From: Chlamydiota bacterium
Lineage (GTDB): Bacteria > Auribacterota > JACPWU01
NCBI GenBank assembly: GCA_016178055.1
Contig: JACOUC010000048.1
Coordinates: forward strand, 425-64,424
Direction of reading: 5' to 3'
DNA: 64,000 bases
Shown: in pieces, positions 3,721 through 30,440 of the stretch
Layout of the letters: each line of letters begins with the position of its first letter
Position numbering within the stretch: the stretch's first letter is position 1
Program-made: the position numbers and the translations under genes
Notes under the pieces: model-generated
What the model was told of the DNA's origin: nothing
Databases searched by the model: none
Seen by the model: only the letters and a program-made list of their open reading frames with translations

Positions 3721-4849
3721 TTTAGATTTGGATGTAAAAATAAAATTTTCTTGTTCGACGCTTTTTTTTCTATTCGCTTTTCTATATTTTAACTGTTTTG
3801 GGATAGAGGGGAGCCCCTCGCAAAATGATTACAAAATCTATATCGTAAAGAAAGGGGACACCCTTTTTTCCATTAGCCACAGATGGGGTATTCAATTAAC
3901 AAGATTAATGGAAGTGAATCATCTTCAAAATCCTAACAAGATTCATCAGGGTCAGAGTCTTATGATTCCTGTTGTTGTGAAAGAGATGGTAAAACCTCCT
4001 TTAAAAGTCGATTTATCTCCAAAAAAGGTTGTTGCACCTCTCCCCTCTATTGCCCCTCCTCTTTCTAAAGATGAATTGGATTTAGATCCTTCTATTTCTC
4101 CAGAGAAGGACGCCTTGTCTCAAAAAGGAGTACCTGCCTCTCCCAAAATGGATCATTTTGGGGTCGGTTTTGGATGGTGGTTTGGTTTTCTGGATGCGAA
4201 GGCCAAGGTTTCTGTCACAGGACTTGAGGGAACGGAGATTGATTTGGCAGATGATTTAGGTGTCGATGATTCTGTGGGGCTTCCCGTGGTGAATTTCTGG
4301 CTTCAACCTTTGCCGTACTTGCGTTTTTCAGGTGAGTATATGGAGTTAGGAATGGAGGGCGCGGCCACGATTGATGAGAAAATTGTTTTTGATGGAGAAA
4401 CGTATTCTATTTCAGATGAAGTCAGTGGAAAGTTAGACATTCAGAGATTCAGTGGTTGGGTTGAAATCAATCCTTTTCGCGGTTCTTGGGGATATGTAGG
4501 AGGGATGATTGGAGGAGAATATGTTCAGCTTGATGCAGAGCTTTCATCCCAGTTGGTAGGAAGTGCAAGTCACAGTCTTGATGCTGTAACACTCACATTA
4601 GGAGCCCAAATGCGTTTAGATATGACTTCGCATTGGGCTATTGATGGACGGATTCGAGGGATGAGTTTTGAATTTGATAATGCCCAAGTTGATGTTTTTG
4701 ACGGCCAAATGGGTCTTGTGTGGAGTCCGATCGAACCTTTAGAATTTTCACTGGCCTATCGCTTCCTCTTTTTTGATTGGGTTCAAACAGAGGATTCGGG
4801 GGATTTAACCTTACAGGGGCCGGTCATCAGTGGTTTAGTAAAGTTTTAA
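3707..4849 (+). CDS. LysM domain protein with C-terminal outer-membrane beta-barrel
   Basis: LysM motif YIVKKGDTLFSISHRWGIQLTRLMEVNHLQNPNKIHQGQSLMIP. Pro-rich linker. About 230 aa of alternating-hydrophobic strands ending in terminal Phe (LVKF). Confidence 0.65.
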   Translation: MRKGNLDLDVKIKFSCSTLFFLFAFLYFNCFGIEGSPSQNDYKIYIVKKGDTLFSISHRWGIQLTRLMEVNHLQNPNKIHQGQSLMIPVVVKEMVKPPLKVDLSPKKVVAPLPSIAPPLSKDELDLDPSISPEKDALSQKGVPASPKMDHFGVGFGWWFGFLDAKAKVSVTGLEGTEIDLADDLGVDDSVGLPVVNFWLQPLPYLRFSGEYMELGMEGAATIDEKIVFDGETYSISDEVSGKLDIQRFSGWVEINPFRGSWGYVGGMIGGEYVQLDAELSSQLVGSASHSLDAVTLTLGAQMRLDMTSHWAIDGRIRGMSFEFDNAQVDVFDGQMGLVWSPIEPLEFSLAYRFLFFDWVQTEDSGDLTLQGPVISGLVKF

Positions 4850-5907
4850 TTTAGCCTTCCATTTTCTTTCAGTAAAGTAGACATTAATCCTAGGAGCGCA
4901 GAAAAGATTTTGATCATTTTCTTTGTATTTTGGGTTGGAAGTGTTAAATGGAGAATTTGAGAACGTTCAATGGATTTTTCAATAATATCGTTGATCCCTG
5001 TAAGATGTTTAGAAGAACGTTTGGAGGGATGAAGGGTTTGGCGAATAAGACGAGCTTTATTTTTTTCTAAGAATTCGGCCGCAGTCCTTTTCCCACGCGA
5101 AATTGAAGAGGGCATTGAAAAAACTTCTTTGAGATGATGATCCAGAAAACCAGTTGCTTTTTGGCGGAAGGACTCAAGATCAAAGGCTCCAAAATATTTT
5201 CTAAAAAAAAATTCTAAGGTCTCTTTCATTTCACTTTGAGGTTTGTGAAGATCTTGAGAGGAGGGATGCGGCTTTTTTCGGGCATAGCGATGAGCTATTT
5301 TCTCGATGAACTTCAATTTTTTTAGGGCATTTCCTTGGTAGGAAGAGTGATCTTCATGAGGGTCTAACCAGGCTGCAAAGGTATCAGAAAAATCCTCTTC
5401 AGGGTGCGTTCTTGAATAGCCCATGGATGCGGCTCCCCAGCGCTCAAGATAATTCACGTAATTTGTAGTCAGGGGGTCAACTTCGCTCAAAGGAATGCGT
5501 TTAGAATTGAAACGTCCAAATAGTTTCCGAGCAGTTTTATTTTTCCCAAGGTTATAAGCGTAGAAAAGGGCATGGCCGCATTCATGCCGTAAAAGGGCTT
5601 TGATTTGGTGATCTTCTAAAGTCTCCCGCCGCTCACTTCCAACCCATCGATTTAATTCTACCAGTTCGGGACGAGCGAGATAAAAAGGGATTCCAATATT
5701 AACGGTATCTTGGACGCATCCAAATTCATCTGAAAGATAGAAAAAAGGTTTATAGATTAAATCATGTTTTTTGAGTTCTTGGCGAATATTTTTAATGAGG
5801 GGTTCGTATCTTGAGCCGGCAATTTTTAAGGGAAGAAGAAAAAGGGGGGTCATCAGAAACTCATACTGCAACGTTTCTTTGCTGTAGAGGGTCTTTTGTA
5901 TGCTCAC
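4846..5907 (-). CDS. Putative zinc metallopeptidase (HExxH)
   Basis: LRHECGHALFY contains HExxH. The overall family call is recollection only. Confidence 0.5.
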   Translation of the reverse strand: MSIQKTLYSKETLQYEFLMTPLFLLPLKIAGSRYEPLIKNIRQELKKHDLIYKPFFYLSDEFGCVQDTVNIGIPFYLARPELVELNRWVGSERRETLEDHQIKALLRHECGHALFYAYNLGKNKTARKLFGRFNSKRIPLSEVDPLTTNYVNYLERWGAASMGYSRTHPEEDFSDTFAAWLDPHEDHSSYQGNALKKLKFIEKIAHRYARKKPHPSSQDLHKPQSEMKETLEFFFRKYFGAFDLESFRQKATGFLDHHLKEVFSMPSSISRGKRTAAEFLEKNKARLIRQTLHPSKRSSKHLTGINDIIEKSIERSQILHLTLPTQNTKKMIKIFSALLGLMSTLLKENGRLN

Positions 5908-6398: not shown

Positions 6399-6674
6399 AT
6401 GAAATCTTATCGTAGTTTATTGACAGTGGCCTTGGGGCTTTTATTAGGTTTTTCCGTAATGAGCAGCTATGCGGGTATGACGTGTCCTGCTTGTAAAGCT
6501 TCCATGCCGGCTTCTAGTAAGCCCGTTTTGGAGATGCTGAAGGAAGATGCGAAATGCTCCATGTGCAGCGCTGAATTAAAGGTAGGGACCGAAGTGAGCA
6601 AGATGACTTGCCCGGCTTGCAAAGCTGAGATGATTGTTTGTTCAACGTGTGCAAAAGCAAACCAAGAGTCCTAA
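6399..6674 (+). CDS. Small secreted protein with four CxxC motifs
   Basis: RBS gaggagg 10 nt upstream of ATG 6399. Signal peptide MKSYRSLLTVALGLLLGFSVMSSYA. Mature ~65 aa carries CPAC, CSMC, CPAC, CSTC. MTCPACKA occurs twice. Confidence 0.6.
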   Translation: MKSYRSLLTVALGLLLGFSVMSSYAGMTCPACKASMPASSKPVLEMLKEDAKCSMCSAELKVGTEVSKMTCPACKAEMIVCSTCAKANQES

Positions 6675-6698
6675 GAATATTTTCTTAGATTCTTCAAG

Positions 6699-6733
6699 AC
6701 ACCCCTGGGATAAAATCCCGGGGGTGTTTTTTT
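6699..6733 (+). terminator. Rho-independent terminator
   Basis: acacccctggga-taaaa-tcccgggggtgt followed by ttttttt. Confidence 0.8.
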
Positions 6734-6765
6734 ATGCATTTTCATGTTTCTTAAAGATATTCATC

Positions 6766-6794
6766 TTGACATTCTTATAATTTTAATTAATACT
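6766..6794 (+). promoter_or_regulatory. Candidate sigma-70 promoter of fur
   Basis: TTGACA (6766-6771), 17-nt spacer, AATACT (6789-6794). The operator palindrome follows immediately. Confidence 0.4.
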
Positions 6795-6809
6795 GAGACT
6801 CAATCTCAA
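6794..6809. promoter_or_regulatory. Fur-family operator candidate (7-1-7 inverted repeat), site 1
   Basis: tgagactcaatctcaa is the exact reverse complement of the 16-mer at 7310-7325. It abuts the fur start codon. Confidence 0.6.
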
Positions 6810-7243
6810 TGGATAACGCGATACTTTCGCAACAGGATTATAGGATTAAGTTAAAAGAAAGCGGTTTAAAGCCGACGCAGGCGAGATTATTGATTTTTAA
6901 AGAGGTTCTTAAAATGCCACATCACTTCAATGCGGATGATTTGGCTTTGCGAGTACGGAGTCAAAACGAAAGGGTTTCTCGGGCAACGGTATATCGGGCG
7001 CTTCCTATTCTGGTTGAATTTGGAATTTTAAGGGAAGTCGTTTTTAGTGAAAAACATCATAATTATGAATGCATGCTGGGAAGGAAACATCACGAGCATT
7101 TGATTTGTCTTAAATGTGGGACGATTATAGAGTTTTCAGATGAGAGAATGGAAATTCCTCTGGATGAAGCTTGTGAGAAGTATCATTTTAAGGCGGTGGC
7201 CCATAAGACGGAAGTGACAGGGTATTGCAGAAAGTGTCAGTGA
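6809..7243 (+). CDS. fur: Fur-family metalloregulator
   Basis: wHTH RVSRATVYRAL, HHEHLICLKCG and C-terminal YCRKCQ (two CxxC pairs), 144 aa. Confidence 0.85.
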   Translation: MDNAILSQQDYRIKLKESGLKPTQARLLIFKEVLKMPHHFNADDLALRVRSQNERVSRATVYRALPILVEFGILREVVFSEKHHNYECMLGRKHHEHLICLKCGTIIEFSDERMEIPLDEACEKYHFKAVAHKTEVTGYCRKCQ

Positions 7244-7309
7244 TGAAGAGGAGTTTTTCAGTAAATTTTCTTTACAGCAAAATCATTTCAGTTATTTTGT
7301 TATTCTTAT

Positions 7310-7326
7310 TTGAGATTGAGTCTCAA
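7310..7326. promoter_or_regulatory. Fur-family operator candidate, site 2
   Basis: ttgagattgagtctcaa reads as TGAGATT-g-AGTCTCA. Lies 75 nt upstream of the hemP-like ORF. Confidence 0.6.
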
Positions 7327-7400
7327 TATCTTTTAGATATGATGAACAGGAAGCGGCCTTATTGTGTAAAAAGACAGCTCTTTTGATTGGATTTTCTTAA

Positions 7401-7565
7401 ATGAACAAGCAAAGTTTTGTGGAGAGTATGAAACCCTTTTTAAGTGAAAAATTTGTGTATTCAGAAGAGTTATTCGGCAAGGAAAAAGTTGTTTATATTC
7501 AGCATGAAAATTTAGTTTATCGGTTAATGAGGACACGAAACGGAAAATTAATTTTGAATAAGTGA
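7401..7565 (+). CDS. hemP: HemP/HmuP-like hemin-uptake small protein (54 aa, below ORF-track cutoff)
   Basis: My translation: MNKQSFVESMKPFLSEKFVYSEELFGKEKVVYIQHENLVYRLMRTRNGKLILNK. The C-terminal pattern Y-R-L-x-x-T-x-x-GKLIL-x-K is the HemP family signature as I recall it. Confidence 0.6.
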   Translation: MNKQSFVESMKPFLSEKFVYSEELFGKEKVVYIQHENLVYRLMRTRNGKLILNK

Positions 7566-7659
7566 TGATTTTACACCGGCACTTAAACAGAGCAAGGGAT
7601 GGCCGGTAGAAATATCATAAAAAGTACCTAGCTAAAATTGAAAATTTAAGGAGGTTCAT

Positions 7660-8436
7660 ATGTTGTGGAAGAAGGGATTTTTAGTCTTTGTTTTTGCCGG
7701 AATTTTGGGCGGGCTTGTGCAAGCTGATGAGCGGCATTTTACCTATAGCTATGAGGCGGATTCGATTTTGCCCAAGGGGCATTGGGAATTGGAGCAGTGG
7801 GTGACGTTGAAAGAGGGAAAAGATGAGGGGAAGTTTCATCGCTGGGATTTCCGTGAAGAGATTGAATATGGTTTGACGGATCGGCTGACAACAGCCTTGT
7901 ATCTCAATTTCAGAGATACGACGGTGGATCTTAAAGAGGATGGGAACGATTCAGAGGCCTTTGAATTTAGGGGCGTTTCTTCAGAATGGAAATATATGTT
8001 GTTCAGTCCGCATCTTTGTCCCATCGGTGTCCTCTTCTATTTTGAGACACGTTATGATGGTGAGGAGTTGGAACTTGAGGAAAAGCTTATTTTAGAGCAT
8101 ATCTTTTTCGAGAAATGGATCGGGGTCGTTAACGTTGTGGGTGAAGAGGAGTGGGAGTTTGAGGAAGAGGAAACCAAGACGGAAGGTGCGTTGGAGTTTG
8201 ATTTAGGACTTTCTTATCTGATCAATGGACATTGGTCTGTCGGGGTGGAGGCGAGAAATCATCGTGAGTATCCCGAGTTTGAGGAAGAAGAACATTCTGC
8301 GTGGTTTGTGGGACCCAATATTCATTATGGGAGCTCAAAATGGTGGGCAACCTTCACGGTGCTCCCTCAGGTGACGGATGTCCTTGATGAGCATGAGGAG
8401 GTTGAAGTGAGGTTTATTGCGGGAGTATTATTTTAA
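7660..8436 (+). CDS. Putative outer-membrane beta-barrel protein, acidic loops
   Basis: RBS aaggagg. Signal peptide ...GGLVQA|DE. Alternating strands. Glu-rich loops (EEEWEFEEEETKTE, EFEEEEH). Terminal Phe (AGVLF). Confidence 0.6.
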   Translation: MLWKKGFLVFVFAGILGGLVQADERHFTYSYEADSILPKGHWELEQWVTLKEGKDEGKFHRWDFREEIEYGLTDRLTTALYLNFRDTTVDLKEDGNDSEAFEFRGVSSEWKYMLFSPHLCPIGVLFYFETRYDGEELELEEKLILEHIFFEKWIGVVNVVGEEEWEFEEEETKTEGALEFDLGLSYLINGHWSVGVEARNHREYPEFEEEEHSAWFVGPNIHYGSSKWWATFTVLPQVTDVLDEHEEVEVRFIAGVLF

Positions 8437-8572
8437 GGATAGAATATTTTTAGTTTTCTTTGCGCAAGGTGCTTTCTCTGGCTATATGAGGGATGGCCCT
8501 TGCGTTGTCCATGGTAAATTTTTAGGCTAATGCAGAAGATTCTAGAGAAGAGCCAGATAAAGGGTAACAGGT

Positions 8573-9985
8573 ATGTTTGAGTCTTTAATCATTATGTTGC
8601 GAGAGGGGATTGAGGCCTCTCTTGTGATTGGAATTCTTTTGGGGAGTTTAAGAAAAATGGGGCGGATGGACCTTGCCCCTTTTGTTTATTATGGTTTAGG
8701 GTTGGCTCTTTTTGGGAGCATACTGGGTGCCGTGCTTCTTCAATTTTTTGTCGTGAGTGAAGAGATTTATGAAGGTTTTCTTTATCTTGGCGCTGCATTA
8801 TTTGTTTCGACCATGCTTTATTGGATGCTTCAGCATTCAAAGAAATTGAAGGGAGAGATTGAGCAAGCGGTTGAAAGAGCTACACAGGAAAAGGGGGCTC
8901 GATCTCAAAAGTGGGGACTTTTTGCGTTTACTTTTTTTATGGTCTTTAGAGAGGGGATTGAGGCCGTTCTTTTTTTAAGTGCGGTGGGCTTAACGACTGA
9001 AAAACTTTTATCATTGATCGGAGGTCTTTTAGGATTAGCTCTTGCCATTCTTTTTTGCGTCGCATTTGTCAAGGGAACGGTTAAAGTCGATTTAAATCGA
9101 TTTTTCAAGGTTAGCACCGTTGTTTTGGTTATTTTCATTGTTCAGCTTTTAATCAATGGATTTCATGAATTATCGGAAGCTCAGATTTTACCCGCAAGCC
9201 AGTGGGAAATGGCACTGATAGGTCCTGTGGTTAGAAATAATGCCTTGTTTATTTTGGCCATTTTAAGTATTCCAATTCTCATTTTTTTATTTCCCTCGCG
9301 TAAAAAAGAGGAAATTTCTGCTGATTTAGAGGGTCCTCAAAGACGACTTCTTTTAGCCAAATTAAAAGGACAAAAAAAATGGCGTTGGTTTTGGGCTTTT
9401 ACTTCTATCACGATTATGATTCTTTTAGGAACTCATGCGGTCTATTCAGGGCGTGGTCAGACGCTTGATCCACCTCTTTTGGTGAATGCAATGGGGGAAG
9501 AGATTCGCATTCCTTTTGAGGAGGTTTCGGATGAAAAGCTTCATCGATTTGCCTTTAAAGATGGAGAGACTCTGATTCGCTTTCTGGTTATCAAAACCGA
9601 AAAAGATCACTATCGAACGGCTTTTGATCTTTGTGAGATTTGTGGTGATTATGGTTACGTTCAAGAAGGGGAGAACGTGATTTGCCTTAATTGCACAGCA
9701 GCAATCTATCCGCCTACGATTGGGGTTCCCGGAGGCTGCAATCCTATTCCCCTTAAGTCAATTTTAGAGGGAGAGCAAATTGTGATTCGTAAAAGTGATT
9801 TGCGAGAGATGTCGGGTCGTTTTAAACAGAAAATGCTTCCACAAGTCGAATGTGAAATTTGCCGCATGAAACTTCATCTAGAAGAGGCTCATTCAATCGA
9901 AATTCAGGGTCGAACATTTTATTTATGCTCGATGGACTCGTGCAGGAAGGAGTTTGAGCGTCGTGCTTCTCAGAATACTCCGTGA
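8573..9985 (+). CDS. FTR1/EfeU-type iron permease fused to Cys-rich DUF2318-like domain and C-terminal YHS/TRASH-like domain
   Basis: Two REGIE (RExxE) motifs (LREGIEASL, FREGIEAVL) in a polytopic N-half. Then CEICGDYGY...ICLNC...GGCNPIP. Then CEICRMK...YLCSMDSCRKEF. Confidence 0.75.
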   Translation: MFESLIIMLREGIEASLVIGILLGSLRKMGRMDLAPFVYYGLGLALFGSILGAVLLQFFVVSEEIYEGFLYLGAALFVSTMLYWMLQHSKKLKGEIEQAVERATQEKGARSQKWGLFAFTFFMVFREGIEAVLFLSAVGLTTEKLLSLIGGLLGLALAILFCVAFVKGTVKVDLNRFFKVSTVVLVIFIVQLLINGFHELSEAQILPASQWEMALIGPVVRNNALFILAILSIPILIFLFPSRKKEEISADLEGPQRRLLLAKLKGQKKWRWFWAFTSITIMILLGTHAVYSGRGQTLDPPLLVNAMGEEIRIPFEEVSDEKLHRFAFKDGETLIRFLVIKTEKDHYRTAFDLCEICGDYGYVQEGENVICLNCTAAIYPPTIGVPGGCNPIPLKSILEGEQIVIRKSDLREMSGRFKQKMLPQVECEICRMKLHLEEAHSIEIQGRTFYLCSMDSCRKEFERRASQNTP

Positions 9986-11222
9986 GTCTTTTCTTCGGCG
10001 AAAACGTCGTAAGACCATTGGAATTTTAGCGGTTGCCTTGGGATCTAGTCTTGCAACGGCCCTCATCGGTATTTCCATTGAGATGGGGGATAAAATAGAG
10101 CAGCAATTAAAAGTTTATGGGTCCAATATCCGAGTTCATGCCGTCGAGCCCCCTCTAAAAAGGGAGTGGGGTCCTTCCCTGAAGGAAGCTTATCTTTCCC
10201 AGAAGGATCTTCCTAGAATCAAAGAAATTTTTTGGACGAATAATATTATTGATTTTGCACCTTTTTTATCACTTCCTGTGGATTGTCAAGGGAAACGCAT
10301 CTTTTTATATGGAACTTGGTTTTCAAAAGAACTTTCTAATCAGCAAAAAATGAAAACAGGAATTCAATCCCTATTCAAATTTTGGAAGGTTGAAGGAGCG
10401 TGGCCTCAAGATGATCAGGTTTTTCCCCAAGCCCTGATGGGAAAAGATTTGGCACGGGTTTTAAATATTCATGTGGGTGATCCCCTTTCTTTGAAGTATG
10501 AGGGAAAAGAACTGAGCGTTAAAGTGGTAGGCCTTCTGGATTCAGGGGAAGAATTTGATACGGCTATTTTGGTTGATTTGACTCAAGTTCAGGTCTTAAC
10601 AGGTCTTACGAATGCCATCCATGAAATTTTTGTGAGTGCACTGACGATTCCCTCAGATTCTCTTGAAAAGACTTTTCGAAAGAGCCCGACAGCACTTTCT
10701 CCCCAAGAATACGAACGTTGGTCTTGTTCCCCTTATGTTTCAAGTATTGCCCGTCAAATCCAAGAGGTTTTTCCTCATTCTGTGGCAGAGCCCATTTTAA
10801 CAGTGGTTCAAAGGGAGGGGTTGATCTTGAGCAAATTGAAGTTTCTCTTTATTTATATTTGCTTATCGGCTCTTCTAACGGCGGGCATTGGTTTTGCAAG
10901 CACCTTAATGGCCACAGTGGTAGAGAGACGTCAAGAAGTGGGCCTCTTACGTGCATTAGGGGCAAGTGTATGGAGTATTCTCCTCATTTTCCTTTCAGAA
11001 ATGTTGGTGATTGCCATTGTAGGATCCACTTTGGGGGGAATTTTAGGATATCTTTTAGGTCAAATGATTTCTTTTAGAATTTTTGAGACAGGTATTCATC
11101 CAAATCTTATTGTAGTTTTTGTGGTCGGGGGAGTGACTTTATTGATTTCCATTCTAGGAGGACTTTTTCCGTTAAGGACTTCTCTTAAATTAGATCCTGC
11201 GAGAGTGCTTCATGAAAATTAA
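9954..11222 (+). CDS. ABC transporter permease, FtsX/MacB type
   Basis: TM1, a large extracytoplasmic domain, three C-terminal TMs. Ends LKLDPARVLHEN. Start (TTG 9954 or GTG 9963) overlaps the upstream stop. Confidence 0.75.
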   Translation: MSVVLLRILRESFLRRKRRKTIGILAVALGSSLATALIGISIEMGDKIEQQLKVYGSNIRVHAVEPPLKREWGPSLKEAYLSQKDLPRIKEIFWTNNIIDFAPFLSLPVDCQGKRIFLYGTWFSKELSNQQKMKTGIQSLFKFWKVEGAWPQDDQVFPQALMGKDLARVLNIHVGDPLSLKYEGKELSVKVVGLLDSGEEFDTAILVDLTQVQVLTGLTNAIHEIFVSALTIPSDSLEKTFRKSPTALSPQEYERWSCSPYVSSIARQIQEVFPHSVAEPILTVVQREGLILSKLKFLFIYICLSALLTAGIGFASTLMATVVERRQEVGLLRALGASVWSILLIFLSEMLVIAIVGSTLGGILGYLLGQMISFRIFETGIHPNLIVVFVVGGVTLLISILGGLFPLRTSLKLDPARVLHEN

Positions 11223-12327
11223 GATGTTTATGAGGTTATGCTTTAAGGCCATGCTGCGTGGGAGAAACAAAACACTTTTACTCATGGGAGTTTCAATGAT
11301 GGCGGTTGCCGTGAGTACAAGCCTTCTTGGACTTATTGATGATATTCGTCTTCAGATGGAAAATGAATTAAAAGTTTTCGGGCCCAATTTTGTGATTCGT
11401 CCCTCTTTGGGATATGATCAAGAAGGAATTTCTCGAGGATGTTTTCCTTTTTTAAAGCGAAAGTTAAAGGAGGCCGAGGCGATCTATTCTCCTTGTCTTT
11501 TGGGAACGATGCAATTCAAAGGAGAACTTGTGGGGGTCATGGGATTGGAAATTGAATCCTATCAGAAATTTTCCCAAAGTTTTGATCTGGAGGGAAGATG
11601 GATTCTCCAACCTCGGGAAGCAATGATTGGGCAGGGCGTTGCTCAAAAATTCGAATTAAAATTAGGGGAACCATTTCAATGGGATGAATATGCTTCTTCT
11701 TTTCATGTCTGTGGAATTTTTCAATCAGGAGGGAAAGAAGATGAACAGATTATTTTAAGACTTTCAGAGGCTCAAGAGGTGATGGGTCAAAAAAATAAAG
11801 TATCCTCATTCTTAGCTCGGATTCCAGGCTCTTTAAAAGAATTAGAAGAGTTAGCGAGAAAAATTGAAGGGCGTTTTCCTTCTCTTAAGGCAAGTCCTAT
11901 TCGAAAAGTAGCTCTTTCTGAAGGAGAGATTCTAGATCGGATTGAAGGGCTTGTTTGGATGGTGACTTTGCTGATCTTTATCATGACAGGACTCACGCTG
12001 ATGGCAACTTCCAATGCACTGGTTTCAGAGCGCCGTCAAGAATTTGGGTTGTCTCGGGTTTTAGGTGCTTCTGGATTTCATTTGAGCCTTCTTTTTTATG
12101 TGCAAGCTCTTTTATCAAGTTGGACAGCTGCCCTGCCCGGATTTTTTCTTGGATTCTGGAGTTTAGACCAATTAGTTCAGAATCTTTTTTCAGTTCATGC
12201 CTCTTTTCGTTGGGAATTGGTTCCCGTGATTTTAGTGTTTATGCTGGTTGTTGTTCTTTTTGGGGGAAGTGTTGCTGTGAGAAGAATCATTAAGATTGAG
12301 CCTGCTATGGTTTTAAAAGGGGAGTAA
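11212..12327 (+). CDS. ABC transporter permease, FtsX/MacB type (second copy)
   Basis: Same architecture. Ends IKIEPAMVLKGE. Overlaps the upstream gene by 11 nt. Confidence 0.75.
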   Translation: MKIKMFMRLCFKAMLRGRNKTLLLMGVSMMAVAVSTSLLGLIDDIRLQMENELKVFGPNFVIRPSLGYDQEGISRGCFPFLKRKLKEAEAIYSPCLLGTMQFKGELVGVMGLEIESYQKFSQSFDLEGRWILQPREAMIGQGVAQKFELKLGEPFQWDEYASSFHVCGIFQSGGKEDEQIILRLSEAQEVMGQKNKVSSFLARIPGSLKELEELARKIEGRFPSLKASPIRKVALSEGEILDRIEGLVWMVTLLIFIMTGLTLMATSNALVSERRQEFGLSRVLGASGFHLSLLFYVQALLSSWTAALPGFFLGFWSLDQLVQNLFSVHASFRWELVPVILVFMLVVVLFGGSVAVRRIIKIEPAMVLKGE

Positions 12328-12453
12328 AATAAATTAAAAATCAAAACGCAAAAATCAAAATGACAAATTAAAATTCAAAAAAATAAATAGCTTTAAAAGT
12401 TTTTCATAAATCTCTACCATAATTTTGATTTTTGATGTTTGATTTTTGGATTT
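12328..12453. repeat. Heptamer-periodic hairpin element, AAAATCA flavour, subfamily 1 (A)
   Basis: Arms tcaaaac|gcaaaaa|tcaaaat|gacaaat and aattttg|atttttg|atgtttg|atttttg. Core aaaaaaataaatagctttaaaag (12377-12399). Shares gtttttcataaatctctaccataattttgat with 13526-13647 and 49932-50044. Confidence 0.85.
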
Positions 12454-12457
12454 TCTT

Positions 12458-13528
12458 ATGAACACACTTATTCATGCAAGGAAATTGACGCGGCGCTATG
12501 GGGATCAGGTTTTGGCCCTGGATCAAGTGGATCTTACTATTCATCAGGGGGAATGGCTGGCGATGATGGGGCCTTCAGGATCAGGGAAAACGACCTTGCT
12601 TAATTTGCTAGGCTGTTTGGATCAACCTACGGATGGAGAAATCTGGTTTGAGGGTAAGCTTACGACAGCTTTAGATCGAACAGAGCTTACCCGTTTTCGA
12701 AGAGAAAATGTGGGGTTTGTTTTTCAGCAATTTCATCTGGTGGATTATCTAACTGCTTTAGAAAATGTGATGGTGGCCCAGTATTATCACAGCATGGTGG
12801 ATGAAGAAGAAGCAAAAAGGGCCTTAACTGAGGTAGGATTGTCTGAGCGTCTTCATCATTATCCCTGTCAACTTTCTGGAGGAGAACAGCAAAGGGCCTG
12901 TATTGCCAGAGCTTTGATTAATCGTCCCAAACTGATTTTGGCTGATGAGCCTACGGGAAACCTGGATGAGAAGAGTGAAGAGGTGGTGCTGGACCTTTTT
13001 AGAAGTTTGCATAGAGAAGGTCATACCATTTTGATGGTGACCCACGATATCACCGTCGGTAAAATGGCCGATCGCCAAATCCAGCTTGAACATGGTAAAA
13101 TCATTGGTTCTTATCTCACTTCTCTTCAAGCCGAAGAGGATATCGAGAATCTCTTAAAAAAATTATGGGAATTAAAAGAGGAGGGCAAACTCTCTTATCA
13201 ATATTTAGAGAATGCTGATTTTCTGGATCATGCGGGAACATTAAAATATATGGGAATAAAAGGTCTGCTAGAGTTTTCCCCGGGGAAGGTTGCATTGACC
13301 GATGAGGGAGAGCGTCGAATGAAAGATGTGATTCGAAGACATCGACTGGCAGAGATCCTTTTTTCTCAAACCTTGCGGATGGATAAGGATCGCTCGGATA
13401 AGGAGGCGTGTCAATTCGAACATCTTCTTGATCCTGAAATGACGGAGAAGATTTGCTCTTTTCTTGAGCATCCGAAATTCTGTCCCCATGGCCGTTTGAT
13501 TCCACCGGGGGAATGCTGTAAAAAATAA
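12458..13528 (+). CDS. ABC transporter ATPase (MacB/LolD-like) fused to a complete DtxR/MntR-like metal-sensor module
   Basis: Walker A GPSGSGKTT, signature LSGGEQQR, Walker B LILADEPT. C-terminal ~140 aa reads IRRHRLAEILF...DKEACQFEHLLDPEMTEKI...CPHGRLIP and parallels DtxR (RKHRLAERLL...DEACRWEHVMSDEVERRL...PFGNPIP). Confidence 0.8.
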   Translation: MNTLIHARKLTRRYGDQVLALDQVDLTIHQGEWLAMMGPSGSGKTTLLNLLGCLDQPTDGEIWFEGKLTTALDRTELTRFRRENVGFVFQQFHLVDYLTALENVMVAQYYHSMVDEEEAKRALTEVGLSERLHHYPCQLSGGEQQRACIARALINRPKLILADEPTGNLDEKSEEVVLDLFRSLHREGHTILMVTHDITVGKMADRQIQLEHGKIIGSYLTSLQAEEDIENLLKKLWELKEEGKLSYQYLENADFLDHAGTLKYMGIKGLLEFSPGKVALTDEGERRMKDVIRRHRLAEILFSQTLRMDKDRSDKEACQFEHLLDPEMTEKICSFLEHPKFCPHGRLIPPGECCKK

Positions 13529-15301: not shown

Positions 15302-16156
15302 CTATTTAAGAAGTTTCTTGTAAAGGGATCTTAAACTTTGGGTTAGGGGGCCGGGTTTTCCACTTCCAATCTTCTTTCCGTTGGATTCAACCCAGGGGAC
15401 AATTCCCATGAGGGCATTGGTAAGAAAGGCTTCATTGGCTTGAATAATCTCATCAGGGTGAATGGATCTTATCTCAGGTTTAAGATCCAAAGAGGGACAT
15501 CGTTCTAAAATAATTTTTCGTGTAATGCCACCCAAAATACCATCTTCCTGAGGAGGGGTGATCAGTTTCTTTCCTTGGATTAAGAAGAGATTACTGGCTG
15601 TTCCTTCGGTGACACCATTTTTTGTATTGAGGAAAATTCCTTCATCCACTTCTTTTTCGAGGGCCTCCATTCTTCCTAAAATATTATCGAGATAATTAAG
15701 CGATTTAATTTGTGAGAGGGGTGAAGTCTCATTTCTGCGGATGGGAAGTGTGAGGGTGCGATAGCCTCGTTCGTAAATTTCTTCACGAAAGGGGAGAAAT
15801 TTCCTACTAATAATGATGAGGTTAGGTTTCCCTGAAACGATAGGGGGGATAGACCCCATCCATTTTCCGCGTGTGACGCTTAGACGAATGTAACAATCAT
15901 CCAGTCCACTTTCCAAAACGGTTTTATTAATCAGAGAAAGAATTTCTTCCGGTTTCCAGGCGGGTTCAATTTTGAGAATTTCCATCCCATAGAAGAGTCT
16001 TTGGATATGAGCTTCAAGCCCGATCGCTTTTTCATTTATGAACCTGAGACTCTCAAAAATTCCATCTCCAAAGAAAAGTCCTCGGTCTAAAATCAATTCT
16101 GGAGCTTCATTTTCCTTGAAAAACCGGTTGTTGAAATAAATAAGATTTTGAGACAT
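15302..16156 (-). CDS. pabC: Class IV aminotransferase-fold protein, likely aminodeoxychorismate lyase
   Basis: FGDGIFESLR and the class-IV fold pattern. Sits immediately downstream of, and overlapping, the pabB-like gene. Confidence 0.7.
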   Translation of the reverse strand: MSQNLIYFNNRFFKENEAPELILDRGLFFGDGIFESLRFINEKAIGLEAHIQRLFYGMEILKIEPAWKPEEILSLINKTVLESGLDDCYIRLSVTRGKWMGSIPPIVSGKPNLIIISRKFLPFREEIYERGYRTLTLPIRRNETSPLSQIKSLNYLDNILGRMEALEKEVDEGIFLNTKNGVTEGTASNLFLIQGKKLITPPQEDGILGGITRKIILERCPSLDLKPEIRSIHPDEIIQANEAFLTNALMGIVPWVESNGKKIGSGKPGPLTQSLRSLYKKLLK

Positions 16157-17528
16157 TAAAAAAGATACTCCCCTTTGCCAGTGTTTCCTCATACTCCTTT
16201 TCAGGATCGGAATCGGCTACGATTCCCCCTCCCACCTGAAATGAAATTTTATTCTGGCTCCGGATTAAGGTTCGAATCAGGATTGAAAGATCACTGACTC
16301 CATTGAATCCAATGGTACCGAAGATACCCGTATAAAGATTCCGTCGAGTGGGCTCAAGTTCCTCAATGATTTCCATCGCACGGATTTTAGGAGCGCCCGT
16401 AATAGAGCCACCTGGAAAAATAGCTCTGAGGCAATCAAAGGGGTCGACTTTTTGTTTTAAAATTCCTTGAACGGTTCCTACCAAATGGAAAACATTGGGG
16501 TGAGACTCGATGCGTTTTTGTTCTAAGACTTGAACGGAGCCATATTCACAAACCTTGCCCAAGTCATTTCTTTCTAGATCAATAATCATGAGGAGTTCAG
16601 CCGCATCCTTGCGGCTTTCAAGTAATTCTTGTTTAAGTTGAGAGTCCTCAAGAGGGGTCTTGCCTCGAGGTCGAGTTCCTTTAATGGGACGAGTTTCGAT
16701 TTGACGATTTTCTATCCTTAAAAATCGTTCAGGGGACAGGCTGACGAGATCAAGCTCTGGAGTATGAAAATAGGACGCAAAGGGAGCCGGCTGATTTGTA
16801 GCCAGGGTCTTGAATAAGGAAAAGGAATCTCCCGAAAAAGTGGCTGAGAATCTTTGAGAGAGATTGGCTTGGTAAATGTCCCCTTCAGCAATGTAGTTTT
16901 TAATCTTTTGAATGGTGTTGAGATAATTCTCTTTGGTGAAGTTTGAAACAAAGGGTTGAATTTCTAGTTCGTTTTGGTCCTCTGTCTTCTGTCTTCTGTC
17001 TTCTTCTGATAGCGCCTGCTTCAGCCATTGAATCTTATTCAGAGCTTGTTGAGAATTTTCTCCTGGAAGTGGAATAGCAATCAACATTCCTTTTTTTTTA
17101 AGGTGATCATAAAGATAAGCCCGATCATAAAAACCAACGCAGATATCGGGATAGTTTTGATCGTCTTTTGAAAACGAAGGAATTTTTTCGAGCATTCGGG
17201 CTAGATCATACCCAAAGTAACCGACCAGTCCTCCTTGAAAGAAGGGAATGTTTTGAAAAGGAAGGACATATTCTTTAAAAAGATTTTGAAGGATGGAAAG
17301 GGGATCCTGAGAAAAAATTTTTTCTATTTTTTGGTCAGAGTTTTCAATTTTGATATGAGGGCCTTTACTTTTAAAGGTTAAGAAAGGATCCCATCCCAAG
17401 AGGCAGTACCGCTCATGATGAAGAAAAAAGGCGTAAGGTTTTTTGCTCAGGGTTTGGAAAAGGTTGAATAAATCAATTTCGTTTAAGGGGTCAATGAAGG
17501 GGTTAAGCTCTGACATTTTAGTTTTCAT
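16107..17528 (-). CDS. pabB: Aminodeoxychorismate synthase component I (chorismate-binding enzyme)
   Basis: FPGGSITGAPKIRAMEII motif. Pairing with pabC favours PabB over TrpE. Start set at ATG 17528, beyond the neighbouring stop at 17548. Confidence 0.8.
   Translation of the reverse strand: MKTKMSELNPFIDPLNEIDLFNLFQTLSKKPYAFFLHHERYCLLGWDPFLTFKSKGPHIKIENSDQKIEKIFSQDPLSILQNLFKEYVLPFQNIPFFQGGLVGYFGYDLARMLEKIPSFSKDDQNYPDICVGFYDRAYLYDHLKKKGMLIAIPLPGENSQQALNKIQWLKQALSEEDRRQKTEDQNELEIQPFVSNFTKENYLNTIQKIKNYIAEGDIYQANLSQRFSATFSGDSFSLFKTLATNQPAPFASYFHTPELDLVSLSPERFLRIENRQIETRPIKGTRPRGKTPLEDSQLKQELLESRKDAAELLMIIDLERNDLGKVCEYGSVQVLEQKRIESHPNVFHLVGTVQGILKQKVDPFDCLRAIFPGGSITGAPKIRAMEIIEELEPTRRNLYTGIFGTIGFNGVSDLSILIRTLIRSQNKISFQVGGGIVADSDPEKEYEETLAKGSIFFNVSKSYLFQQPVFQGK
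16979..17006. repeat. In-frame heptamer array inside pabB
   Basis: cctctgt|cttctgt|cttctgt|cttcttc on the + strand. Encodes part of EEDRRQKTEDQ. Confidence 0.6.
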
Positions 17529-17547
17529 CTTTTGTGATGTTGTAATG

Positions 17548-19254
17548 TCAAATGTCAAGACTTGACCCCAGGTGCGTTTTCTCGAGAAGTTCAAGGATTT
17601 CTTTGCGTTTAATTTTGAGGGTGGTTGTTTTGGGGAGTTCATTCCAGATTTCAAAACCTCGGATTTTTTTGTAGTCGGCGAGTCGAAGATTCGCTCTTTT
17701 TACAGCCTCAGAAAGAGTTTCTTGAATAAGAGGAAGGTCAATCGACATTTTTTCGAGAGGGGTTCCCTCCGGATAAAAGGAAGTAAGCTTTGGAACGAGA
17801 AGGGCATAGACAACCTCATCTCCGGCAAACCCTTTCGAATCTTTCTTGAGGCCGACGATACAAGATTCTTGAATGGAAGAGGAGCGGTTGAGTTCTTCTT
17901 CCAATTCTTCAGGGTACACATTTTTCCCTCCCCGCGTGACGATAATATTCTTGAGTCGACCTGAAATATAGAGGTACCCTTTTGAATCAAAAAAGCCAAT
18001 GTCACCCGTATGGAACCAGCCGTCTTTCATAATTTCAGAGGTCGCCTCAGGATTTTTGTAATAACCTTTCATGATGTTGGGACCCCGTGCAATAATTTCT
18101 CCATTCATGATTTTGATCTCGACACCTGGGATGGGTCGGCCCACAGAGCCAATGGTGTTGTGGCTCGGGCTGTTCACGGTCAAGATAGGACTGGTTTCTG
18201 TGAGCCCATAGCCTTGATAGATCGGGATTCCAAGGATGAAAAATTCTTCGATGATTTTAGGGTCAATAGGGGCTCCTCCTGAAATGAAAAATCTAAGCCG
18301 ATGGCTCATTTTATCTCGGAGGGATTTAAAAAGGAGTCGACCCAAGGGAAAACCGGCCGAGAGGGAAATTTTGGAAAGTTTTTTTAAAATCTTAAAAATA
18401 ATTTTTTTCTTTTGAGGAAGTATTTCAATTTTTGAAATCATTTGGTGATACATCAATTGAATCAGGGCTGGAACAGCAACTAGTAGGGTTCCTCTGTTTT
18501 CATGCATTCTTTCTAAAAGAATAGGACCTTTTAAATTCTCAACATAGGTGATGGTTCCCCCGGTATAAAGGGGAATCAGAAAATCGGCTGTGATGGCATA
18601 GGTATGGCAAAGGGGTAGAACAGAGATAAAGTGATCATTAGATGAGAAAGGAAAAACGGATGAAACAGATTTGACATTAGAGATGAGATTCCCGTGGCTG
18701 AGCATGACCCCTTTAGGAGATCCAGTCGTGCCAGAAGTATAAAGAATAATGGCAAGATCCTCAGATGTTATTTTTTCAAAAGGAATGGATTGATTTTTAC
18801 CTTCTTTGACAAGTTGATCTAGGGAAAGCCATTTCCCTTTAGAGTCTTTCCCATCTAAAATGATGATGTTGGGATGAATGGGACTTCGCTCAGAAATGGA
18901 TGAGACCGTATCAAGGAATTTGAGAGAACTGAAAATGAATTTACATTCAGCATGGTCGATGATGTTTTGAATGGAGTGGTCCTTCAGTTTGTTGTCGATC
19001 GGGACAACGACCCCTCCACATAAAAGAATGCTGAAAAATGCCATTCCCCAATAGGGAGAGTTTTCCGTGATGATCCCGATACGGTCCCCATGGATTACTT
19101 TAAGTTTTTTTAAAGCCGTGGCAACTTGAAAGGCTTTTTCATAGAGATCATGGTAAGTGACGCTAAAATAAGTTTTTCCCTCCTTAATTTGGAGAGCGAT
19201 TCGTGCACCAAAGGACGAATTGGCCGTTTGAATAAGGTGTGTGAGTGTATCCAT
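17548..19254 (-). CDS. Long-chain acyl-CoA synthetase (AMP-forming)
   Basis: AMP-binding motif ILYTSGTTGSPKGVMLSH, plus GYGLTE and GWFHTGD. Confidence 0.8.
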   Translation of the reverse strand: MDTLTHLIQTANSSFGARIALQIKEGKTYFSVTYHDLYEKAFQVATALKKLKVIHGDRIGIITENSPYWGMAFFSILLCGGVVVPIDNKLKDHSIQNIIDHAECKFIFSSLKFLDTVSSISERSPIHPNIIILDGKDSKGKWLSLDQLVKEGKNQSIPFEKITSEDLAIILYTSGTTGSPKGVMLSHGNLISNVKSVSSVFPFSSNDHFISVLPLCHTYAITADFLIPLYTGGTITYVENLKGPILLERMHENRGTLLVAVPALIQLMYHQMISKIEILPQKKKIIFKILKKLSKISLSAGFPLGRLLFKSLRDKMSHRLRFFISGGAPIDPKIIEEFFILGIPIYQGYGLTETSPILTVNSPSHNTIGSVGRPIPGVEIKIMNGEIIARGPNIMKGYYKNPEATSEIMKDGWFHTGDIGFFDSKGYLYISGRLKNIIVTRGGKNVYPEELEEELNRSSSIQESCIVGLKKDSKGFAGDEVVYALLVPKLTSFYPEGTPLEKMSIDLPLIQETLSEAVKRANLRLADYKKIRGFEIWNELPKTTTLKIKRKEILELLEKTHLGSSLDI

Positions 19255-23721: not shown

Positions 23722-24210
23722 ATGAAAATGAAAAAAAGCATGGTTTTTGTTCTTATTCTTTTAGGGATTTTATTTCCCCTCAATATTTTTTCTGAAGGAC
23801 GGAAGGCCCCTGATTTTACCTTGACGGATTTAGAGGGTAAAACGTTTAAACTTTCTGATTTAGCAGGAAAAATCGTTGTTCTCGATTTTTGGGCTACGTG
23901 GTGTCCTCCTTGCCAAGATGAAATTCCTCATTTTGTAGAGTTAAAAAATCAATATGGCTCTAAAGGTCTTGAAATTGTGGGGATTGCCTTGGATCGTCAA
24001 GGGGTACGGGTGGTCAAACCCTTTGTTGAAAGATTTAAAGTGAATTATACCATTTTAATAGGGGATTATGATCAAGTGATCAACGACTACGGGGGTGTGG
24101 TGGGCATTCCAACAACTTTTTTGATCAATCGAGAAGGCCATATTGTGAAACAGTTTGTGGGGTATATTGAAAAAGAAGAATTTGAGGAGGAAGTTAAGAA
24201 ACTGCTATGA
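23722..24210 (+). CDS. TlpA/ResA-like periplasmic thiol:disulfide oxidoreductase
   Basis: Signal peptide and the WATWCPPC thioredoxin motif. Confidence 0.8.
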   Translation: MKMKKSMVFVLILLGILFPLNIFSEGRKAPDFTLTDLEGKTFKLSDLAGKIVVLDFWATWCPPCQDEIPHFVELKNQYGSKGLEIVGIALDRQGVRVVKPFVERFKVNYTILIGDYDQVINDYGGVVGIPTTFLINREGHIVKQFVGYIEKEEFEEEVKKLL

Positions 24211-24813: not shown

Positions 24814-27800
24814 GTGGGAAATGCGAAAAAGAGAAAATCAAATCATTCTTGTTTAGATGTAAAGTTCTTAAAAGATAATCTCCTCTCTGGGAAGTACACC
24901 TCTCAAATTAGCCGTTTCCTTCGTCAATGTGGTTTTTCTGATCCTGATCAAGCTTTTCGTGACCTCGCTTCATTAATTAAAGAAACCCGTTCTCAAGAAG
25001 AAGGTCTGGATCTCATTCATTTTCTTTTACCTCTTTTTGGAAAAATTCCTTCTCCCAATCAGGCCTTAAATTATTTCGAGCGATTTGCCTGCGTTCATAC
25101 CCATCCCGAGATGTTGTATTCTTTTTTGAAAAAGGTTCCGCGTACGCGTGAGATTCTAGTCCATCTTTTCTCAATGAGTCCTGCCCTTTCTGAAAGTTTA
25201 ATTAAAAACCCAGAATATTTTTCTTGGGTTTTTGACCCCCAAATTCTTGAGGTTTCGTGGGATAAAGAGGCCTTTCGTCAAGATATTGACAATACCCTTA
25301 AGAATCTGATGTCCTGGCCTGCCCGGCTCAATGCGCTTAAAAGGTTTAAACGTCGTCACATGCTTCGAATCGGTCTTAAGGATTTGCTTCAAAAAGAGTC
25401 AATCGAAGAAACAATATGCGAGCTATCCCTTCTTGCCGATATTTGCTTGGAATGGGCGTATCAATTTTCCAAAGAGGACATGGAAAAGAAATTTGGTTCT
25501 CCCAAAAATGAAAATGAACCTCATCAAATTTCTAATTTGGCTGTGATTGCGATGGGGAAATGGGGAGGGCTTGAACTGAATTTCAGTTCGGATATCGATA
25601 TGATGTTTGTTTATTCCTTTGAGGGGAAAACATCCGGAGGAAATTTGGGAGTTTTAGATAACCATATTTTTTTCACTCAGTTGGCTCAAGGCATTTTAAA
25701 AATATTAAGCGAGAGAACTCAAGAAGGCTATCTTTATCGTGTGGATACGCGTCTAAGACCTGAAGGGCCGACCGGACCCTTGGTCAGGTCTCTCGAGAGT
25801 TATGAACATTATTATGCAAGTTGGGGAGCCAGTTGGGAAAGGCAGGCCTTGATGAAGGGAAGATGTGCGGCTGGAGATGAACAGATGGGCGAGGAATTTT
25901 TAAAGAGGGTAGAACCTTTTATCTATCGAAAGTACATGGATCACATGGCCCTTGAGGATATGAGGCTTATTAAAACAAAAATTGATGAGGAGGTCGCAGG
26001 TCGAAACAAGAAGGGGAGGGATGTTAAATTGGGGGAAGGGGGTATTCGTGAAATTGAATTTGGGGTCCAAATTCTCCAGCTTCTTTATGGCGGAAAGAGG
26101 GAGTCTTTAAGACAAAGAGGCTCGCTTGACGCCCTTTTTTATTTGGCCAAATCAGGTCTTCTTCAAGAAAAAACATCGCAAAATTTGAAGCGCGCTTATC
26201 TTTTTTTGAGGCGTGTTGAGCATGCACTTCAACTTGAATTTGAAAGACAGACGCATGTCTTGCCAGAAGATTCAAAAAAACTTTTTCTTTTTAGTCAATG
26301 TTTAGGTTATTCGACTCCCGAGGCCTTTTTAAGAGATTATGATCGAGAGACTCAATGGGTTCATCAATTTTATCAGGATCTTTTTAAGTCTTTGAGCTTT
26401 TTAAAAAGTGGGGATCATTCGTCTATTTTATTCGGACATCTTTTTGAGAGAAAGCGTCTTTCCGAAGAGGAGGAAGTTCTCTTAACAAATTGTGGGTTCA
26501 AGAATATTGAAAGTGCTAAGCGCAATTTGCTTCTCCTTCGAAATGGAACCGAGGAAGTTCTTGTATCAGCCGATTCAAAAATCTTTCAAGAAATCCTTCC
26601 TCAATTCATCGAGTCTTTAAAGAAGGCATTGGATCCAGATCAAGCCCTCATTGGCTTTGAACGTTTTGTCTCTTCCTATAAAGCCAGGCATGTTTTCTAT
26701 GAAATGTTGAGAGCTTCCCCTCGTATCTTAGATCTTTTAATCATGCTTTTTGGAACCAGCCTTCTTTTAACAGAAATTTTAATCAGAAATCCAAATTATT
26801 TTGACTGTCTTACCTCCGGGATTTTAGACGAGAAGGGTTTAGACGAGGCAAGGCATTCAGGTCTTTTAGAAGTGATCGATAGCTCCATCTCTTTGGAAAA
26901 AAAGATTATGGCTTTGAGTGATTACAAAAATTTAGAGATGTTAAAAACAGGCTTAAGGGACATTTTAGGTTTTAATCTTTGCATGGAAATCCTCGAACAG
27001 TTGAGTCTCTTAGCTGAAAGAATGGTAGGGGATGCTTTTAAGATGGCCGTTCAAATTTTTAGAAAAAGGTATCGAAAAAAACCCCCTTCTTTTGGAGTGG
27101 TCGGACTTGGAAAGTTAGGGGGAAGGGAATTGGGGTATGGTTCTGATCTAGATATTGTTTTTGTTTGTGAAACGGATGCAGCTCATTTGGAGGATGCAAA
27201 TAGACTGGGTTCAATTATCTTAGAGATTCTTGAGAGGAGTTCTTTAGAGGGACCGATTTATAAAATGGATCCTCGACTAAGACCGGATGGAAGCAAAGGT
27301 CCTTTGGTTCAAGACATTGAAACATTTAAATCTTATTATCAGAATTCTAATTCAATTTGGGAAAGAATGGCCTTGACGCGTGCCCGATGGATTGTGGGAA
27401 TAGATTCTTTAGGGAAAAACATCATGAAAATTCTAGGAGATTTTATCTTCAAATCTCCCGTGAGTCAGAGTCAGGCACAAGAAATTAGAAGTATTCGAGA
27501 CCAGATTGTCCAGGAACGTTGTCGAGGGGTTCGAGAAGGTTTTGAACTAAAATCAGGGCTGGGAGGTTTATTGGACATTGAATTTTTGGCCCAATTTCTT
27601 CAATTAAAATGGGGTCGAAAATATTCAGAGTTAAAAGAGACACATACCTTGAAATTACTTGAGAAACTTTCTTCTAGAAATCTTATTTCAGGTGAAGAAG
27701 TTGATTTTTTGATGAAAGCCTATCTTTTTTATCGGGAGGTGGAATGCACTTTGCGTCTCATTAAAAATCGTCCAACGGATTTTCTTCCAAAGGATGAAGA

Positions 27801-28426: not shown

Positions 28427-28453
28427 AAAGGCGTTTTGGAATAGTTTAGTTTC

Positions 28454-28602: not shown

Positions 28603-28722
28603 TTGAAGGAGAATGGCATTTATAAACTATTACGGTGTTTTGTAAGATTGACATATATCCAAAATTCTGCGATAGAAAAATTAAATTGGGTGGAAAACCT
28701 TTGAAGATGAAGTCTCCCGCTT

Positions 28723-28783: not shown

Positions 28784-28807
28784 GGCTTTCTATCGCTGTT
28801 TTCGGGT

Positions 28808-28984: not shown

Positions 28985-29000
28985 CGCTAAACGCTATACC

Positions 29001-30413: not shown

Positions 30414-30440
30414 CTTAAAGCGCCTCCTTTTTAGACTCAA

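Follow-up and report, generated by a model that had tools for sequence, protein, structure and literature searches.

The closest described relatives of the system examined here are the FetMP-FetABCDEF iron-uptake loci of Campylobacter jejuni (cj1658-1665), of Escherichia coli and Salmonella plasmids and of Yersinia (FetMP-Fls). FetA has been described as a protein of eight transmembrane helices followed by a DUF2318 and a YHS domain (PMC10783030), and fetA, fetB, fetC and fetD are each required for low-iron growth in the homologous system (PMC6083913; PMC10783030). What FetA and the MacB-type FetBCD contribute next to an FTR1 channel is a standing question in Campylobacter, uropathogenic E. 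coli, Yersinia and Salmonella. We analyzed a relative of this system in a 64-kb stretch of a Chlamydiota metagenome-assembled genome (MAG; contig JACOUC010000048.1), called the window below. Its iron locus consists of eight open reading frames (ORFs), all on the + strand, at 6399-13528. The locus is known in kind, as a relative of Fet; what is new is a FetA-type protein that retains FTR1 features and an ATPase fused to a DtxR-type module. Pfam matches supported every domain call for these ORFs, and a preceding sequence-only reading of the same DNA had placed all the genes that it listed (mini-protein, fur, hemP, barrel, FTR1, FtsX pair and ATPase) correctly.

The core of the locus is a four-gene cassette (8573-13528) encoding a FetA-type permease (8573-9985, +; 470 amino acids, aa), two FtsX/MacB-type permeases (9954-11222, + and 11212-12327, +) and an ATP-binding cassette (ABC) ATPase (12446-13528, +). 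Both FtsX proteins matched Pfam MacB_PCD and FtsX. The canonical fet cluster of an E. coli plasmid (L005) was used as the reference; its genes run in the order NqrC-like FMN_bind, FetM, FetP/P19, FetA, FetB, FetC, FetD and TlpA. In the plasmid search the full permease query returned EfeU genes only, and the Cys-domain query was needed to reach fet clusters. The two FtsX proteins and the nucleotide-binding domain (NBD) of the ATPase were reciprocal best matches of E. coli FetB (37%), FetC (29%) and FetD (58%), in the same order. The first FtsX protein was 37% identical to FetB over its full length compared to 25% for FetC, and the second was 29% identical to FetC compared to 25% for FetB. The permease aligned over aa 139-470 with E. 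coli FetA (BLASTP 1e-28; hhalign probability 99.95%). These matches bear out the earlier proposal that the locus is a condensed, P19-less relative of Campylobacter ftr1-p19-cj1660-65. The order FetA-FetB-FetC-FetD, a FetA with eight transmembrane helices, a periplasmic CxxC-x13-CxxC-x14-C domain and a probable YHS-type tail, and predicted control by Fur are shared with the described systems. In contrast to them, the window locus lacks FetM, FetP/P19 and the FetE/F thioredoxins, its FetA-type protein has both RExxE motifs and is still recognised as an FTR1, the tail bears Cys residues (TRASH-like) where the YHS domain of E. coli FetA is Cys-free, the ATPase carries a DtxR module, and the cassette is linked to genes for an outer-membrane barrel, hemP and a CxxC mini-protein.

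The FTR1 domain of the permease, with its eight transmembrane helices, spans aa 1-294. Pfam FTR1 (PF03239) matched aa 1-203 with E 2.6e-38 (132.4 bits, against a gathering cut-off of 25.3), and the two REGIE motifs that had been noticed in the sequence lie in transmembrane helices 1 (aa 10-14; nucleotides, nt, 8600-8614) and 4 (aa 126-130; nt 8948-8962). The R, E, G and E of these motifs were invariant in 35 homologues. The Cys domain (nt 9524-9823) matched the FtrD-like family PF10080, formerly DUF2318, over aa 318-417 (E 7e-30), so that the hidden Markov model check set beforehand supported both the FTR1 and the DUF2318-like domain. Its motif CEIC-x13-CLNC-x14-C (C354-C389) matches the published FetA motif exactly (PMC6083913), and its five Cys residues were invariant in the same 35 homologues. 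The YHS/TRASH-like tail CxxC-x21-CxxxxC (nt 9842-9973), also proposed earlier, fared less clearly. PF04945 (YHS) gave no match in the window protein at E<=0.1, whereas homologues that align with it end to end carry PF04945. In the AlphaFold2 (AF2) model of the permease (predicted local distance difference test, pLDDT, 81) the tail superposed on the TRASH-fold ribosomal protein eL24, with a probability of 0.99, a template-modelling (TM) score of 0.55-0.58 and E of about 1. K/R residues are abundant in two loops of the model (aa 89-108 and 240-264) which, by the positive-inside rule, suggests that the C-terminal domains are periplasmic, in agreement with the published placement for FetA (PMC6083913). 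No PDB sequence matched the permease at E<=1 and Foldseek found nothing for its model at E<=0.001, indicating that it has no solved relative. The best NCBIfam model was EfeU (8e-42, below the model's cut-off), and its relatives have no more than generic database names ('Fe-S-containing protein' or 'FTR1 family protein').

It had been suggested that the DUF2318-like part was fused to the permease. PF10080 is indeed continuous with FTR1 in one protein. Since published FetA is already built of eight transmembrane helices, DUF2318 and YHS, the permease is a FetA-type protein and not a join of FetM and FetA. E. coli FetA gave no FTR1 match and has no RExxE in its membrane part, and the idea that FetA is a decayed FTR1 is only partly shown. 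The permease also shares the FTR1 fold and two RExxE motifs with the oxidase-dependent FTR1/EfeU permeases (yeast Ftr1-Fet3, EfeUOB and FtrABCD). It differs from these in having an extra eighth transmembrane helix and built-in periplasmic Cys domains and in an obligatory linkage to a MacB-type ABC unit, and no multicopper oxidase, EfeO/EfeB, cupredoxin or P19 partner was found within 64 kb. When all window ORFs of at least 45 aa were searched by phmmer with E. coli FetP and other queries, and the neighbors with Pfam, the 64 kb yielded neither P19 nor FMN_bind nor another FTR1. The only TlpA/AhpC-like gene of the window (23722-24210) is 10 kb away, beside a phosphotransferase-system EIIA gene. 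The ABC unit itself has the FtsX fold and the MacB periplasmic core of the type VII mechanotransmitters (MacB/LolCDE/FtsEX), and its NBD is nearest to those of MJ0796, MacB and LolD. Unlike these, it pairs an FtsX heterodimer with a dedicated FTR1-type partner and has a metal-sensor extension on the NBD, and there are no TolC or membrane fusion protein partners at the window locus.

The arrangement is common and not peculiar to this genome. At least 817 relatives of the fused permease were counted in the protein collection; PF03239 and PF10080 occur together in all of the best 120. Among species-representative genomes, at least 592 contain a relative. The neighborhoods of the best 80 loci were surveyed by phmmer with window and E. 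coli queries. An FtsX gene followed the permease in 80/80 loci and two FtsX genes were present in 72/80; the ATPase was found in 70/80, the remaining contigs ending early. The association of FtsX and ATPase genes with FTR1-DUF2318, also set beforehand as a check, was thus observed. P19 was found in 0/80 loci, as were hemP, DUF6662 and the mini-protein, while Fur occurred in 8/80, a stand-alone DtxR in 3/80 and TlpA in 3/80. Neither FetP nor a second FTR1 was found in the 80 loci, so the earlier statement that no P19 is encoded at the locus holds for the 64 kb and for these relatives. Fused ATPases that were looked up independently all had FtsX immediately upstream, and the whole cassette was present wherever the contig was long enough. 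Most of the sampled genomes with the cassette are Acidobacteriota, with Chlamydiota, Planctomycetota, Nitrospirota, Omnitrophota and others also represented. This linkage suggests that the four-gene cassette is an old, widespread, P19-independent unit, and its conservation across the 80 loci points to FetA plus FetBCD as the functional core. One variant (L002-L004; 14826-16988 and 923-7063), from a marine 7.4-Mb genome, has the cassette with an ATPase lacking the DtxR module and then a P-type ATPase. The context there hints that some family members act in broader metal homeostasis.

The ATPase, the FetD orthologue, consists of an NBD (nt 12446-13117; ABC_tran, E 1.7e-35) and a DtxR-type module (nt 13118-13525; Fe_dep_repr_C, PF02742, E 3.9e-24), and its true start is probably the ATG at 12458. 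That a metal sensor is attached to the ATPase had been read from the sequence, and the survey agreed with it, with the module present in 60/70 ATPases. The module matched IdeR/DtxR structures at E 1e-12 to 1e-9, with the winged-helix and dimerisation domains both covered, and its aa 12-133 aligned with IdeR. We aligned 67 fused ATPases to DtxR numbering, using a reference sequence that we take to be correct; its key residues checked out in the alignment. The metal ligands were largely kept: H79 in 60/67, E83 in 67/67, C102 in 55/67, E105 in 62/67 and H106 in 58/67. The corresponding regions of the window module read RRHRLAE...EACQFEH. H98 was replaced by E or D in 54 of the 67, and the fused modules have an additional near-invariant set, C117/H122/C126/H128, with a terminal CC. 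PF01325, the helix-turn-helix family, gave no match in the window module. In the DNA-reading region three residues are deleted at the turn (DtxR positions 34-36), Q43 and P39 are not kept, and the helix-turn-helix region is the least conserved part of the fusions, with deletions and with insertions of up to ~28 aa. The recognition-helix region is net negative, with a mean of -2.1 in the fusions vs +1 in DtxR. A separate regulator is retained beside the fused module, Fur in the window and a canonical DtxR in L007/L008. By analogy with known NBD extensions, we favor a sensor or dimerisation role of the module on the NBD dimer over that of a tethered repressor.

An initial impression that the ABC-DtxR fusion was rare was overturned by the 60 fusions in 70 loci. 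It came from about six full-length and four partial examples among the top 150 matches in 1.84 billion representatives, where the top 150 were swamped by two-NBD proteins and a query with the module alone gave stand-alone regulators only. The closest stand-alone relatives of the module (P0121-P0240) have Fe_dep_repr_C and FeoA domains, no PF01325 match, a strongly acidic 'recognition helix', a common CPHGxPIPPGxCC ending and annotations as Mn-dependent regulators. They, too, may not be DNA binders. No relevant report of ABC-DtxR fusions or of FTR1-FtsX systems in Acidobacteria was found in the literature searched, and articles mentioning DUF2318 yielded no description of an FTR1-bearing form or of a DtxR-fused ATPase.

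Next, the genes upstream of the cassette were compared between related genomes. They encode a secreted mini-protein of 91 aa (6399-6674, +), with a signal peptide and four CxxC pairs (CPAC/CSMC/CPAC/CSTC) and weak zinc-ribbon Pfam matches only; a Fur-family regulator of 144 aa (6809-7243, +; Pfam FUR, E 1.7e-29); a hemP-family small protein of 54 aa (7401-7565, +; Pfam hemP, E 1.2e-12, 47.8 bits vs a gathering cut-off of 25); and an acidic 12-strand outer-membrane barrel of the DUF6662 family (7660-8436, +; E 1.2e-15). The best genome match for the permease (64%) was a groundwater 'Chlamydiae bacterium', which shares the cassette-hemL synteny; the ammonium transporter of the window likewise belongs to a 90% cluster with the name 'Chlamydiae bacterium'. 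In L001 (61-74% identity) the order is mini-protein, Fur, hemP, DUF6662, three extra genes (one without a name, FMN_bind and Aq_1264_TM), cassette and hemL. A sister genome with the same flanks (L094) has the mini-protein, Fur, DUF6662, FeoA-FeoB and hemL. Of the comparative evidence, FeoAB in the slot of the cassette speaks most strongly for iron import by the cassette, and it argues for Fe(II). The mini-protein is kept at 63% in L001 and at 51% in L094, and the possibility that it is specific to the cassette was rejected because it is also present where FeoAB takes the place of the cassette. The mini-protein, Fur and the barrel are thus a lineage-specific, general Fur iron island, which serves FeoAB in L094. 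The sequence-only reading had described the mini-protein and the barrel as additions to a Campylobacter-type locus; both are present, but they belong to this island and are not add-ons of the cassette.

A 20-bp palindromic element, TTGAGATTGAGTCTCARTAT, occurs twice in the window, at 6790-6809 (-) and 7310-7329 (+), and 0/100 shuffles contained two matches. This agrees with the operator claimed earlier, and we read the element as the predicted operator of this lineage's Fur. The first copy (O1, TTGAGATTGAGTCTCAGTAT) abuts the fur start codon and overlaps the predicted -10 box of the fur promoter, TTGACA-17-AATACT (6766-6794), which is the best promoter-like site 5' of fur. The second copy (O2, TTGAGATTGAGTCTCAATAT) overlaps a promoter-like site (7316-7343) upstream of hemP. 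Overall, scanning for consensus promoters and terminators gave no more sites than in shuffles, and only the two sites coinciding with the operators were used. L001 has perfect copies of the core ATTGAGNCTCAAT immediately 5' of fur (4442) and also 5' of hemP (4924), and L094 has one immediately 5' of fur (9404). In L014 a perfect copy of the core lies 20 bp 5' of the start of the FTR1/FtrD gene, and fur is not nearby. A Fur operator on both promoters would predict that fur is autoregulated and that the string of genes from hemP to the ATPase gene is repressed as a single unit. Within this string, neither a convincing terminator nor a structured RNA was found, and the barrel-permease intergenic RNA folded no better than shuffles (z -0.46). 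A hairpin with a T-run lies 3' of the mini-protein gene (~6699-6733). The AT-rich 119-nt spacer 5' of the ATPase gene (12328-12445) contains a long-range inverted repeat, AAAAATCAAAACGCAAAAATCAAAAT ... ATTTTGATTTTTGATGTTTGATTTTT; its RNA fold has a z of -2.2, and 4/200 shuffles folded equally well. This spacer is shorter elsewhere (62 nt in L001 and 14 nt in L014) and, therefore, is not conserved.

The DUF6662 protein has a signal peptide, and its AF2 model is a closed 12-strand barrel (pLDDT 89.3, predicted TM score 0.80). The mature protein has an isoelectric point of 4.4 and 18% Glu. The model resembled FapF and the COG4313 channel (Pput2725), both 12-strand channels, with Foldseek E 2e-9 to 6e-7 and TM 0.6-0.7, and some DUF6662 homologues also match Phenol_MetA_deg and OMP_b-brl. 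Although the folds superpose, sequence identity is ~10%, the DUF6662 protein is strongly acidic, and its genomic partners are iron importers rather than amyloid or hydrocarbon pathways. In 6/6 contexts examined, the gene adjoins FeoAB, an FTR1-type gene or a trio of FMN_bind, Aq_1264_TM and ApbE (window 7660-8436; L094 10001-10777; L095 8001-10706; L096 2598-8804; L098 8001-12835; L001 5533-8657). The barrel is, therefore, a candidate outer-membrane iron channel, and this recurrence makes it a candidate for the 'unidentified outer-membrane transporter' of the published Fet model. No mention of DUF6662 or Aq_1264 was found in the literature searched. Among the FTR1-type neighbors of DUF6662 is a 702-aa cytochrome c::FTR1 fusion in L098. 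The FMN_bind/Aq_1264_TM/ApbE trio resembles a flavinylated extracytoplasmic reductase, and the NqrC-like FMN_bind gene of the E. coli plasmid is likewise upstream of fetM (L005 2480-3241).

We propose, with moderate confidence, that the locus encodes a Fur-repressed, P19-independent iron-uptake system with a MacB-like motor and metal feedback through the DtxR module. Iron would pass the outer membrane through the DUF6662 barrel. The periplasmic Cys/TRASH domains of the permease would capture it and perhaps process it by redox chemistry, replacing P19 and possibly the FetEF thioredoxins, and the RExxE channel would then admit the iron to the cytoplasm. Together with the ATPase, the two FtsX proteins could form a MacB-like mechanotransmitter in which cytoplasmic ATP hydrolysis drives or gates the periplasmic domains of the permease, carrying no substrate itself. 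Rising cytosolic Fe(II) or Mn(II) would bind the two DtxR modules under the NBD dimer and shut the motor. Such a metal brake would amount to trans-inhibition like that of MetNI or ModBC, as a fast post-translational layer over the slower control by Fur. The MetNI C2 domains, ModBC and the regulatory domains of MalK are C-terminal, ligand-binding, dimerising domains on the NBD of an ABC importer. By analogy only, the window module could in the same way hold the NBDs apart when the solute is plentiful. It differs from these domains in that the sensor consists of DtxR domains 1 and 2 and the ABC unit probably carries no solute.

Several points weigh against this proposal. Mechanotransmission and trans-inhibition rest on analogy. 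The metal specificity is in doubt as well: many sensors of the DtxR family respond to Mn, copper is the classical association of TRASH/YHS domains and CxM motifs, and the top NCBIfam models for the window Fur were ferric uptake regulators with every score below the cut-off. In L002-L004, a CzcCBA-type efflux pump lies a few genes upstream of the cassette. The fold elements of the winged helix seem to be present in the DtxR module and topologically complete, and DNA binding is thus possible. E. coli FetA could not be aligned with the FTR1 half of the window permease over its first 110 residues. Finally, the genome could have a gene for a P19/EfeO-type partner beyond the 64 kb.

A broader hypothesis, which we put forward only tentatively and hold to be less probable than the proposal for this locus, is that the FetA-type protein, and not FetM/P19, is the ancestral, self-sufficient iron channel of Fet systems, that the FetBCD motor acts on its periplasmic domains, and that in most lineages the motor is metal-gated through the DtxR-derived sensor. 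If this is true, we know of no earlier example of a type VII ABC system with a ligand-sensing regulatory domain, nor of a DtxR fold that serves as an allosteric switch instead of a repressor. The survey describes a large uncharacterised family that keeps a FetA with permease features together with FetBCD and in which P19 and FetM were not found in 80 loci. The four-gene cassette is, therefore, a simpler, minimal and widespread version of a system whose mechanism is unsolved, and the DtxR module of the ATPase gives an entry point to the question of which signal governs the motor.

One other possible explanation for the fused ATPase is that the DtxR module is a genuine repressor attached to a transporter subunit, either tethered to the membrane or released by proteolysis. 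In C. trachomatis a DtxR-like repressor is fused to the permease YtgC and cleaved off, and such fusions have been reported from 11 phyla (PMC5599777). This YtgC-YtgR precedent, a Chlamydiota host, and a module that covers the whole winged-helix and dimerisation region speak for such a repressor. The likeness extends to a DtxR-family module forming the C-terminal extension of a metal-uptake ABC subunit in the same phylum (PMC5599777), but the window module is on the cytoplasmic ATPase of a type VII (MacB-like) system and not on a TroC-type permease, its DNA-reading head is not conserved, and a separate Fur is present. We consider a repressor unlikely given the poor conservation, indels and net negative charge of the recognition-helix region, the separate Fur or canonical DtxR kept in the loci, and the concentration of the fusions in Acidobacteriota rather than Chlamydiota. 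Also, no DtxR-type palindrome was recognised in the promoters read.

The motor and the metal are each open to a different interpretation. The FtsX pair and ATPase could be a true transporter that exports a reductant or thiol for periplasmic redox power, or that imports or exports a chelator. This would fit the published model, in which reducing power is passed on from FetBCD and reaches the periplasm by way of FetA and FetEF (PMC10783030), and the redox-capable CxxC pairs of the permease and the mini-protein. Such a transporter seems improbable here, as there are no thioredoxin genes at the window locus or in 77/80 related loci, and a cytosolic metal sensor on the ATPase suits gating of metal entry better than reductant export. 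The ATPase and permeases belong to the MacB/LolCDE/FtsEX class, and we know of no solved member of that class that moves substrates across the inner membrane. As for the metal, the cassette could handle Mn, Cu, Zn or Pb, or serve metal export or detoxification. The TRASH/YHS domain and the tail consensus CxM...CxMxxC suggest soft metals, the DtxR relatives are mostly annotated as Mn-dependent, and a CzcCBA-type pump and a P-type ATPase flank the cassette in L002-L004. We rate this as the least probable of the alternatives weighed here. The RExxE motifs of FTR1 are invariant, hemP and a Fur-type operator are part of the locus, FeoAB occupies the same slot in L094, and DUF6662 recurs with FeoAB and FTR1-type genes. 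Fet orthologues, moreover, show iron-dependent growth phenotypes (PMC10783030).

Directly upstream of the iron island, a gene at 4846-5907 (-) encodes a 353-aa protein with a weak zinc-metallopeptidase (Peptidase_Mx) match. It is conserved at the same place in L001 (56% identity), and a 345-aa gene occupies the corresponding position in L094. Pathogenic Chlamydia species, to our knowledge, have no Fur and rely on YtgABCD-YtgR; the window and its relatives add environmental chlamydiae with Fur and a Fet-type or FeoAB importer. The Chlamydiota MAG also encodes GlnE, a glutamine synthetase and an ammonium transporter (24814-33537) and has PabB/PabC-like genes (15302-17654) alongside its true Fur, a repertoire that differs from that of the pathogenic Chlamydiaceae.

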